From Octopus sinensis (lineage: Eukaryota): a stretch of 15,520 bases of DNA. Within the stretch, counting starts at the first letter, position 1. Each line of letters begins with the position of its first letter. The notes under the pieces were generated by a model. That model ran no database searches. It saw nothing but the letters and a program-made list of their open reading frames with translations, and was not told where the DNA came from. Positions 4,478 to 14,788 of this stretch are shown in pieces. The position numbers were made by a program, and so were the translations under genes. The DNA lies in assembly GCF_006345805.1 (NCBI RefSeq), contig NW_021825648.1:1-15520 (forward strand). The letters run 5' to 3'.

Positions 4478-5965
4478 TTTTATATATAAAACTGAAGTTG
4501 TGTGTCTGTCTCCTACGATTTAGATTCCTAACTACTCCCACATTTTGCGGTGCAGTGTAACCAAAACCGGGTATCTTATAGTCGTGATTCATATCGAGCC
4601 CTTCTGGGTATTAGCGCGCGTCTACGATGAGTCTACGATTTAAAAAAAATTTACCATGAATTTTCCCCATTTTTAATGCATTTTTTTGCTATTTTTTGCT
4701 CTATAACTCTCTAAAAATGCTTATATAGTTATTCCCTTACAAACCGAGCAACGTCGGGCGATACTGCTAGTTTATATATAAAAGTAAGGTTTTGTGTCTG
4801 TCTCCTACGATTTAGATTCCTAACTAATCCCACATTTTGCGGTGCAGTTTAACCAAAAGCGGGTATCTTATAGTCGTGATTCATATCGAGCCCTTCTTGG
4901 TACTAGCGCGCGTCTACGATGAGTCAACGATTAAAAAAAAAAATTTACCATCAATTTTTCCCATTTTTAGTGCATTTTTTGGCTATAACTCTCTAAAAAT
5001 GCCTATATAGTTATTTCCCTTACAAACCCGAGCAACGTCGGGCGATACTGCTAGTTTATATATAAAAGTAAGGTTTTGTGTCTGTCTCCTACGATTTAGA
5101 TTCCTAACTACTCCCACATTTTGCGGTGTAGTTTAACCAAAACCGGGTATCTTATAGTCGTGATTCATATCGAGCCCTTCTGGGTATTAGCGTGCGTCTA
5201 CGATGAGTCTACGATTTTAAAAAAATTTACCATCAATTTTCCCCATTTTTAATGCATTTTTTTGCTATTTTTTGGCTATAACTCTCTAAAAATGCTTATA
5301 TAGTTATTTCCCTTACAAACCCGAGCAACGTCGGGCGATACTGCTAGTTTATATATAAAAGTAAGGTTTTGTGTCTGTCTCCTACGATTTAGATTCCTAA
5401 CTACTCCCACATTTTGCGGTGTAGTTTAACCAAAACCGGGTATCTTATAGTCGTGATTCATATCGAGCCCTTCTGGGTATTAGCGCGCGTCTACGATGAG
5501 TCTACGATTTAAAAAAAATTTACCATCAATATTCCCCATTTTTAATGCATTTTTTTGCTATTTTTTGGCTATAACTCTCTAAAAATGCTTATATAGTTAC
5601 TTCCCTTACAAACCCGAGCAACGTCGGGCGATACTGCTAGTTTATATATAAAAGTAAGGTTTTGTGTCTGTCTAATCCGATTTAGATTCCTAACTACTCC
5701 CACATTTTGCGGTGTAGTTTAACCAAAACCGGGTATCTTATAGTCGTGATTCATATCGAGCCCTTCTGCGTATTAGCGCGCGTCTACGATGAGTCTACGA
5801 TTTAAAAAAAATTTACCATCAATTTTTCCCATTTTTAATGCATTTTTTGCTATTTTTTGGCTATAACTCTATAAAAATGCTTATATAGTTATTTCCCTTG
5901 CAAACCCGAGCAACGCCGGACGATACTCTTATAGTCGTGATTCATATTGAGCCCTTCTGGGTATT
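4478..5965 (+). mobile_element. Head-to-tail array of ~290-bp non-autonomous Helitron-like element (family E), 5 units plus a partial unit
   Basis: Units start tttatatataaaa and end with the hairpin cccgagcaacgtcggg followed by cgatactgCTAG (CTAG ends at 4770, 5054, 5347, 5640). The fifth unit lacks CTAG and jumps into an internal segment. Confidence 0.85.
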
Positions 5966-7270: not shown

Positions 7271-7884
7271 TAAAGTATACAATGTAGAGAAAAAAGAAGA
7301 GCTAACAATTCCAGTCTGTTATATATTTTGAGTATTGTTATCACTGGCGCAATGGCACAGTGGTTAGGGCAGCGGATTCGCGGTCGTAGGATCGCGGTTT
7401 CGATTCCCAGACCGGGCGTTGTGGGTGTTTATTGAGCGAAAACACCTAAAAGCTCCCCGAGGCTCCGGCAGGAGATGGTGGTGATCCCTGCTGTACTCTT
7501 TCACCACAACTTTCTCTCACTCTTACTTCCTGTTTCTGTTGTGCCTGTATTTCAAAGGGCCGGCCTTGTCACTCTCTGTGTCACGCTGAATATCCCTGAG
7601 AACTACGTTAAGGGTACACGTGTCTGTGGAGTGCTCAGCCACTTACACGTTAATTTCACGAGCAGGCTGTTCCATTGATTCGGATCAACCGGAACCCTCG
7701 TCGTCGTAACCGACGGAGTGCATCCATCCATCCCATTACTAGCGATATCAAGATATAACTTTGTATTTTGCATTTTATCTGTAGATGTATATATATATAT
7801 GTACATGTAATATGTACACATATATATACGCATATATACATGCACTAGCACTATGACCCGGCAACGACGGGTCTTTAATGCTAG
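7271..7884 (+). mobile_element. Second, internally deleted tandem copy of Helitron-like family F, interrupted by SINE C
   Basis: 7273-7345 matches about 6760-6785 joined to 7082-7126. 7741-7884 continues the match to 7127-7270, with the same hairpin and CTAG. Confidence 0.75.
7346..7735 (+). mobile_element. Full-length tRNA-derived SINE family C
   Basis: Head ggcgcaatggcacagtggttagggc (A box-like) ... gtttcgattccc (B box-like) and a (tcca)n tail. Flanked by atcact (7340-7345) and attact (7735-7740), a TSD-like pair. The empty site is visible at about 7120-7135. Confidence 0.9.
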
Positions 7885-8384
7885 TCTTTATATATAAAAG
7901 TGAAGTTGTGTGTCTGTCTCCTACGATTTAGATTCCTAACTACTCCCACATTTTGCGGTGCAGTGTAACCAAAAGCGGGTATCTTATAGTCGTGATTCAT
8001 ATCGAGCCCTTCTGGGTATTAGCGCGCGTCTATGATGAGTCTACGATTTAAAAAAAAAATTACCATCATTTTCTTCCATTTTAATGCATTTTTCGATATT
8101 ATATAAAGGAAGTAACTCTCTAAACATGTCTGCGATGAGTCAACGATTTAAAAAGAAATTTACTATCATTTTTTTCCAATTTAATGCATTTTTTTCGCTA
8201 TTATATAAGGGAAGAAACTCTCTAAAAATGTCTACGATGAGTCAACGATTTTAAAAAAAAATTACCATCATTTTTATTTCCATTTTTAATGCGTTTTTTT
8301 GCTATTTTTTGGCTATAACTCTCTAAAAATGTTTATATAGTTATTTCCCGTACAAACCCGAGCAACGCCGGGCGATACTGCTAG
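7885..8384 (+). mobile_element. Helitron-like family E, single long copy with three internal ~80-bp subrepeats
   Basis: Starts TC (tctttatatataaaag) and ends with hairpin cccgagcaacgccggg + CTAG|T. Contains a repeated gatgagtc(a/t)acgatttaaaaa...aactctctaaa module. Confidence 0.85.
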
Positions 8385-13413: not shown

Positions 13414-13473
13414 AATATATAATTATATAGTATATATATATATGTATATATATATATGTATATATATTATATG

Positions 13474-13556
<83 letters not shown>
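13414..13556. repeat. Interrupted (TA)n microsatellite
   Basis: About 140 bp of TA repeats with occasional G. Another run lies at about 13106-13147. Confidence 0.97.
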
Positions 13557-13558
<2 letters not shown>

Positions 13559-13661
13559 CGGAGTAAACACATAAATGTGAAACAAGGTGGGAAAAAGAGT
13601 ACTCAAATACCAGTGGTAGAGTAATATGCTTTATTTAAAGCAGCAGAAAATTCAACAAAAC

Positions 13662-13699
13662 CTGTTACTCTGAGTTTCACGTTCCCGTTCGTCGGACAG
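13662..13699 (-). ncRNA. Minimal type-I hammerhead ribozyme-like motif (CCGACGA core)
   Basis: Minus strand CUGU CCGACGA ACG-ggaa-CGU GAAA CUCAGAG UA / ACAG. Confidence 0.7.
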
Positions 13700-13729
13700 T
13701 TTTTGCTAAACAGTTTTTGCTAGCAAAAA

Positions 13730-13767
13730 CTGTCCGACGAACGGCAACGTGAAACTCAGAGTAACAG
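13730..13767 (+). ncRNA. Minimal type-I hammerhead ribozyme-like motif (CCGACGA core)
   Basis: CUGU CCGACGA ACG-gcaa-CGU GAAA CUCAGAG UA / ACAG. Stem I extends through AAAA/UUUU, stem II carries a GNRA loop, and predicted cleavage is after A13763. Confidence 0.7.
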
Positions 13768-13812
13768 GTTTTGTTGAATTTTCTGCTGCTTTAAATAAAG
13801 TATATATATATA

Positions 13813-14788
13813 TCTTTATATATAAAAGAAAGGTTGTGTGTCTGTCTAATCCGATTTAGATTCCTAACTACTCCCACATTTTGCGGTGCAGTTTAACCAA
13901 AACCGGGTATCTTATAGTCGTGATTCATATCAAGCCCTTCTGGGTATTAGCGCACGTCTACAATGAGTCTACGATTTTAAAAATAATTTACCATCATTTT
14001 TTTCCATTTTAATGCATTTTTTACTATTTTTTGGCTATAACTCTCTAAAAATGCTTTATAGTTATTTCCCTTACAAACCCGAGCAACGTCGGGCGATACT
14101 GCTAGTTTTATATAAAAGTAAGGTTGTGTGTCTGTCTACTCCGATTTAGATTCCTAACTACTCCCACATTTTGCGGTGCAGTTTAACCAAAAGCGGATAT
14201 CTTATAGTCGTGATTCATATCAAGTCCTTCTGGGTATTAGCGCGCGTCTACAATGAGTCTACGATTTTGAAAAAAGATTACCATCATTTTTTTTTCCATT
14301 TTAATGCATTTTTTACTATTTTTTGCTATAACTCTCTAAAATGCTTTATAGTTATTTCCCTTACAAACCCGAGCAACGTCGGCGATACTGCTAGTTTTAT
14401 ATAAAAGTAAGGTTTTGTGTCTGTCTACTCCGATTTAGATTCCTAACTACTCCCACATTTTGTGGCGTGCAGTTTAACCAAAAGCGGATATCTTATAGTC
14501 GTGATTCATATCAAGTCCTTCTGGGTATTAGCGCGCGTCTACAATGAGTCTACGATTTTGAAAAAAGATTACCATCATTTTTTTCCATTTTAATGCATAT
14601 TTTTTTAAATATAAGGGAAGTAACTCTCTAAAAATGTCTACGATGAGTCAACGATTTAAAAAAAAATTTACCATAATTTTTCTTTACATTTTTAATGCAT
14701 TTTTTGCTATTTTTTGGCTATAACTCTCTAAATCTGCTTTATAGTTATTTCCCTTACAAACCCGAGCAACGCCGGGCGATACTGCTAG
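13813..14788 (+). mobile_element. Helitron-like family E, head-to-tail array of 3 units
   Basis: A|TC start at 13813, hairpin + CTAG ending at 14105, 14394 and 14788, followed by T. The third unit has an extra internal subrepeat. Confidence 0.88.

Follow-up and report, generated by a model that had tools for sequence, protein, structure and literature searches.

Head-to-head terminal repeats of a Hydra-type Penelope-like element in Octopus sinensis and their probable origin from two primings

The insertion lies in contig NW_021825648.1 of Octopus sinensis, which was analysed over its full 15,520 bases (the window), and consists of 244 bp within a (TA)n repeat: two pLTR copies of a Penelope-like retroelement arranged head-to-head. 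It is a solo pLTR pair, probably formed when the reverse transcriptase–endonuclease of the element started two cDNAs, each from a different strand of the cut target, at two fixed sites inside the element RNA. The locus is one decayed copy among thousands of pLTR leftovers, many of them head-to-head, and is ordinary for its family. It is explained by a known element class and is unremarkable taken singly—inverted pLTRs, tails, (TA)n targeting and dimer-type hammerheads are all published features. Of modest interest are the arm statistics at the level of the family and the series that leads from a C4 to a U4 hammerhead core.

Both ends of the insertion abut (TA)n, at 13415–13555 on the left (70.5 copies of period 2 in Tandem Repeats Finder) and at 13801–13813 on the right, in agreement with the target named in the initial annotation. 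The long arm (13557–13708, minus strand) derives from the 3′ pLTR of a Hydra-type Penelope-like element and includes both hammerhead and tail. Across 152 nt it is 93% identical to L066, an ORF-bearing copy, at the 3′ end of the latter, which bears out the Penelope-like origin proposed at the outset. The tail occupies the outermost 72 nt of this arm (13557–13628, minus strand) and is bounded by two fixed 3′ end points, one after AATAAAG and one after CCGGT, which recur across loci; it would be the stretch between two start sites of reverse transcription. The short arm (13721–13800, plus strand) is a second pLTR piece that ends at the internal AATAAAG site and has no tail. Since the left element continues 72 nt further, to 13557, the insertion is asymmetric. 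The 80 nt that the arms share (13629–13708 and 13721–13800) differ at a single position, C at 13684 against G at 13745. They are separated by a spacer of 12 nt (13709–13720), AACAGTTTTTGC, which repeats the arm end as originally described: Tandem Repeats Finder resolves a 14-nt unit in 1.9 copies at 13696–13722 (plus strand), a tandem duplication unique to this locus. The turn itself is a perfect palindrome centred on the self-complementary CTAG (13710–13733). Its perfection had been recognized correctly, its length of 24 nt exceeds the earlier figure by 2 nt, and it may represent a microhomology joint.

The initial annotation had allowed for a chimeric-read or assembly origin of the palindrome; the insertion type is real. 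The central palindrome occurs in short-read contigs of 4 of 4 runs, and a 26-nt perfect version of the turn is found at 157 loci genome-wide. Asymmetric joints appear in short-read contigs of the 4 runs as well, including joints with left-arm ends at 13625, 13634 and 13635. An artefact that accounts for the whole structure would draw on the small, unplaced contig of 15,520 bases, and is very improbable in the face of fixed, biologically defined outer ends, of the identical turn at so many loci and of short-read contigs from several studies that carry both the palindrome and the asymmetric joints. An artefact limited to the 14-nt duplication is unlikely too, though to a much lesser degree: the duplicated spacer has a single match genome-wide and is bridged by no contig of the 4 short-read runs—these are contigs, so this gap proves nothing—while small duplications at the turn also occur elsewhere (L005, L016 and L174). 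The duplication, which is read from the assembly sequence, probably goes back to slippage when the ends were joined. In one run, guessed to be RNA, the central palindrome is present at low depth, which is no evidence of transcription.

The long arm used as query yields 1085 first-look candidates across the 2.7-Gb assembly, of which 40 were scored. Exact matches to the core pattern amount to 2790 with U4 and 1842 with C4 genome-wide; these at least 4632 matches count arms and are lower bounds. Reversed-pattern controls for the core gave 0 matches genome-wide, and the hammerhead family is therefore not a product of chance. The parent element is enclosed by widely spaced inverted pairs. In L066, an open frame of 723 aa lies upstream of the same pLTR and features, as judged by motifs, a reverse transcriptase followed by a C-terminal GIY-YIG endonuclease in a single ORF: RWK at residue 49, DKT at 125 with no DKG, YRDD at 356, CxCX5C at 574 with no CX2-5CxxC linker, VVY...YTG at 593–612, CxxC at 679 and CxH at 707. 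Searches of this ORF against Pfam and the PDB gave 0 matches each; GIY-YIG, RVT_1 and HTH_animal are found in some members of its atlas neighbours. The parent body spans about 3.3 kb from ORF start to tail end, with the hammerhead approximately 210 nt upstream of the ATG. Of the 24 loci that hold an ORF 5′ end, 18 are partial tandems in which hammerhead, AATAAAG, tail, CCGGT, 5′ UTR and ATG follow one another, which places the ends of both arms inside the element RNA. A (TA)n-type repeat follows the short arm at 55 of 62 junctions tallied, exactly TATATATA at 42, with 7 unread.

By its ORF motifs, the parent is assigned to the Penelope-like elements with Hydra-clade features. According to the available part of Craig et al. 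2021 (PMC8557442), this clade is marked by RWK, a change of DKG to DKT, a CxCX5C linker and CxxC plus CxH near the end, with no CCHH; the octopus element shares with it the reverse transcriptase with C-terminal GIY-YIG, RWK, DKT, CxCX5C, the (TA)n target and the pLTR hammerhead. The same part of that work gives a length generally below 3 kb, as a tendency and no rule, and describes inverted 5′ copies and one-sided tails as typical, with their formation left unresolved. The hammerhead of Hydra-2_aMil matches that of the octopus family in stem I (ctgt/acag) and in the actc-N-gagt stem III, and Penelope-13_HM resembles the octopus family in the inverted, 5′-truncated copy attached to it. The octopus element differs from typical Hydra elements in its length of roughly 3.3 kb against <3 kb, in its 72-nt tail against the 30–40 bp described and in its long-lived ccga lineages, whereas all 26 Hydra rows in File S2, a set biased by its descriptor, carry ctga. 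Because both hammerhead and protein sequence differ, the family is distinct from Hydra-1_oBim. A remnant of a second, distant Hydra-type endonuclease with CxCX5C and 31% identity to the L066 ORF lies at L074:943-1332 (G000:C1, near 78,367,000), and similar remnants occur in L045 and L262. A further region, L072:4316-7429, holds an array of approximately 3 kb of trinucleotide-rich higher-order repeats.

The arms were compared in 108 non-redundant loci picked by core pattern, a sample that favours neither arm. A head-to-head pair is present in 65 of them: 58 are long/short, 0 are long/long and 7 are other. The outer ends are fixed 72 nt apart, one arm ending at each point, and the inner ends vary: in 17 of the 58 long/short pairs it is the short arm that extends >8 nt further 5′, in 5 it is the long arm (p=0.017), and 74 of 116 arm 5′ ends fall within 20 nt upstream of the core. 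In 7 cases the long arm consists of tail only, and four of these stop at +63 to +69, which is the start of the short arm. The initial annotation had invoked fold-back or template-switch synthesis, and these asymmetric inner ends speak against fold-back as a complete explanation. Sequence that the long cDNA lacks cannot be present in a copy of it, and so fold-back alone fails; sequence found in the short arm only therefore needs two primings, unless a one-sided deletion followed later.

A pure fold-back would have a tail-primed cDNA snap back on itself, be copied up to AATAAAG and join (TA)n through ATAT microhomology, with all asymmetry left to later deletion. The near-identical arms of the locus fit this course, as do the 36 of 58 long/short pairs that are near-symmetric at the turn and the element sequence CATAT after AATAAAG, which is target-like; self-priming has, moreover, been proposed for palindromic inverted junctions (PMC3846280, available part). 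We nevertheless regard it as improbable, given the excess of longer short arms, the clustering of tail-only long arms at the short-arm start and the existence of solo short copies (11 of 31 solo arms). The commonest recurrent turn among the 38 turns read is found with either arm longer (5 versus 3), that is, in both polarities, and a looped snap-back would not readily produce zero-spacer palindromes such as those at 157 loci. The other turns vary and include small duplications as well as both polarities. Against two primings, later deletion within palindromes could yield the asymmetry, and snap-back also explains the near-symmetric pairs.

Under the preferred reading of two primings, the enzyme would nick both strands in (TA)n; one cDNA would start from the tail end and the other from AATAAAG within the RNA, and as a rule both would use a single RNA, or RNA of the same source, as template. 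Both cDNAs would stop early, mostly ≤20 nt 5′ of the hammerhead core, and their 3′ ends might join via the self-complementary CTAG. Alternatively, one cDNA might snap back before it anneals to the other. A slip of 14 nt in fill-in would then give the duplication of this locus. Subfamily alleles disagree between the arms at 15 of 173 comparisons within pairs against 47.5% between pairs, in a set that includes 30 loci chosen for their likeness to the window; because alleles are thus mostly shared within pairs, the arms appear to derive mostly from one RNA or one source. In L030 and L014, the arms differ at two subfamily-diagnostic sites, which suggests two different RNAs in some insertions. In L113, an inverted arm that consists of tail only is fused immediately 5′ of the ATG in an ORF copy. 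The first base of L101 lies 17 nt upstream of the core, at the usual end of short arms and possibly at an RNA 5′ end.

In LINE-1 twin priming, the opposite strand of the target supplies a second primer for a start within the RNA, which gives an inverted 5′ part. The octopus pairs differ from this in that the second start lies at one fixed site and that the arms usually overlap, which duplicates approximately 80 nt. A biochemical parallel in its starts is Poseidon PAc of Anolis (Frangieh et al. 2024, PMC11167929), for which the available part of the source reports, in vitro, two adjacent internal starts of reverse transcription at the borders of the tail and extension on both target strands, besides a predicted dimer of the protein; hammerhead mutants leave insertion unaffected, so that hammerhead cleavage is dispensable in vitro. 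PAc belongs to another clade, and its hammerhead overlaps the ORF start (PMC11167929), unlike the one in octopus. The account given in the available part of that source does not derive head-to-head pairs from the two starts. The Penelope element of Adineta vaga (PMC3846280) and minimal PLE hammerheads (PMC4209133), as presented in the available parts of these sources, share with the octopus copies head-to-head pLTRs, a palindrome at the joint, a tail on one arm and solo pLTRs, as well as pairs of motifs on opposite strands, 100–700 bp apart, with palindromic stem III. The rotifer study favours self-priming (PMC3846280), whereas the octopus arm statistics favour two primings. A non-LTR retrozyme consists of head-to-tail tandem units, each with a hammerhead (bioRxiv 10.64898/2026.07.22.740005, available part), in contrast to the head-to-head octopus copies with motifs on opposite strands. 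The available part of PMC13282606 does not mention hammerheads.

A literature search found no description of twin priming for Penelope-like elements. For the idea that inverted Penelope terminal repeats arise by dual priming, a matter left open in the sources cited, the family offers genomic support that can be counted; if true, twin priming would explain both the inverted pLTRs and the one-sided tails.

The hammerhead motif of the locus features a stem I of 4 bp (CUGU/ACAG), the core CCGACGA, a stem II of 3 bp with GNRA loop, GAAA, UA and a palindromic stem III with a 1-nt loop (ACUC-N-GAGU type). Stems I, II and III around the core, together with GAAA and UH, make it a type I motif, and the dimer type of stem III that had been recognized earlier is supported. 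The consensus core C3-U4-G5-A6-N7-G8-A9 is departed from in both arms, which carry C at position 4. Two CCGACGA cores had been described and both are present, starting at 13734 (plus) and 13695 (minus); their placement was corrected, in that the two motifs lie on opposite strands. The plus-strand motif (13730–13767) has a GCAA loop and a predicted cleavage site after A13763, its H17 position, and the minus-strand motif (13662–13699) has a GGAA loop and a predicted cleavage site after the A opposite 13666. An Rfam search of the window at E≤1 gave no hammerhead and only hairpin-driven miRNA matches below threshold; the call therefore rests on motif anatomy and on likeness to published hammerheads of Hydra elements.

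The pairing of these two hammerheads into a dimer, suggested by the short loop of stem III, does not hold at this locus: the motifs are mutually antisense, and any one transcript carries a single sense motif, buried in an 80-bp hairpin of −133.9 kcal/mol in read-through RNA against −2.6 kcal/mol for the hammerhead fold. The hammerhead is thus predicted to be a passenger, inactive in a read-through transcript. For same-strand motifs, pairing through stem III has been proposed (PMC4209133, available part), and in this family it appears plausible only for such motifs in partial tandems. An 856-bp direct tandem duplication at L074:3072-4818, with old-subfamily UTR and C4 hammerhead, carries two same-strand motifs that could dimerise.

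The sole difference between the arms falls, as the initial annotation had noticed, in the stem II loop, and both versions are GNRA. It is, however, no sign of selection: GGAA and GCAA are both common subfamily alleles and separate two sister haplotypes, to which 34 and 13 arms, respectively, belong out of 168. A G/C mismatch at this loop site occurs in 2 of 45 pairs, including the locus, and the difference could reflect two templates or one point mutation. Because one mismatch per 80 nt lies within the usual divergence of C4 pairs, selection at the locus is not indicated. That the locus is a selected, functional pair, which dimerises, cleaves and has kept its GNRA loop, is accordingly extremely improbable. 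In its favour, all stems and the core are intact except for U4, the stem III self-duplex is worth −7.4 kcal/mol and, across subfamilies, 5 of 38 motif positions change against approximately 30% of the upstream UTR. Against it stand the opposite strands, the far more stable hairpin, an arm mismatch ordinary among C4 pairs (54/1748) and loop alleles that are spread family-wide; the conservation of the motif would reflect selection on source elements and not on the copy at the locus.

The C4 core is an inherited subfamily state, and its activity is probably weak at best. A fixed C4, which the initial annotation had proposed to check genome-wide, is contradicted by the excess of U4 among the exact matches given above. 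In an ORF tree, 12 C4 copies split from 11 U4 copies on one branch (support 100/98; 9 rows have no core in reach), and C4 lineages therefore had ORFs of their own. Divergence between arms is lower for U4 pairs (20/1438) than for C4 pairs (54/1748; p=0.001), which indicates that the U4 copies are younger. The oldest group has an upstream UTR diverged by approximately 30%, ORF remnants of 63–77% identity and C4 in 16 of 22 cores; its 6 cases of T lie dispersed over the tree and agree with CpG decay, although their rate is the highest of all CpG sites. When the tree is rooted on this group, the U4 copies form a nested clade (FastTree 0.935, 190-nt alignment), and U4 is found in 18 of 18 full-length tandems tied to an intact ORF, at loci selected by likeness to L066. 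C4 is the older state, with canonical U4 in the youngest ORF-bearing lineage. A recent degeneration to C4 was considered and rejected.

The oldest and youngest groups differ at 5 of the 38 motif positions (U4, N7, the N of GNRA, 11.1 and the loop of stem III), three of which are free sites (N7, GNRA N and loop III), and none of the changes over these 38 positions is a compensatory pair change. The comparison of motif with UTR change gives p=0.044 for sites defined after inspection of the data and hints at selection for the fold among source elements. Loss of the A10.1-U11.1 pair preceded the appearance of U4. Possible traces of cleavage were sought among 140 copies that break ≤3 nt from the predicted site. 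Among the 100 breaks listed, 49 were kept by eye as truncations (24 U4-type and 25 C4-type) and 51 small indels were dropped; in a control window 5 nt upstream, 77 of 89 were kept (20 U4-type versus 57 C4-type). The resulting odds ratio of 2.7 (p=0.012) is post hoc, hand-sorted, confounded by microhomology and concerns approximately 1% of copies.

A natural viroid hammerhead carries the identical core change (U4C; cited in Perreault et al. 2011, PMC3088659). The available part of that source, which tolerates weak stem II, gives it much lower activity in vitro, with infectivity still permitted. Unlike this variant, the octopus C4 is a lineage state of a retroelement that persisted over several amplification waves. 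As core variant, the available part of PMC4209133 names U3-A8 and not C4. A literature search found no C4-core (U4C/CCGANGA) lineage in retroelements; it did not extend to the study of variant dimeric PLE hammerheads by Lunse et al. 2017, which may bear on this point. Standard CUGANGA descriptors would overlook approximately 40% of the motifs of the family. As a tentative and rather doubtful reading, the thousands of asymmetric inserts may preserve the outcome of twin priming in vivo, carried out by a dimeric Penelope-type enzyme at two fixed RNA sites, with U4C kept through the waves and U4 arising only after loss of A10.1-U11.1, as if cleavage were deliberately held low, a stronger core being offset by a weaker stem II. 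The natural allele series—C4 against U4, and 10.1-11.1 paired against mismatched—could test whether cleavage matters for the elements.

Two further inverted repeats in the window are unrelated to the hammerhead pLTR family, namely 11452–11663/11712–11923 (212 nt, 92%) and 12619–12730/12797–12908 (112 nt, 99%); the sub-threshold Rfam miRNA matches at these two repeats are a reflection of their hairpins. A 290-bp repeat forms tandem arrays at 4479–5927, 7794–8093 and 13819–14604, the last of which begins directly after the right (TA)n flank. Other tandem families of 255, 229, 198 and 191 bp are present in the window, and the contig consists nearly entirely of repeats.
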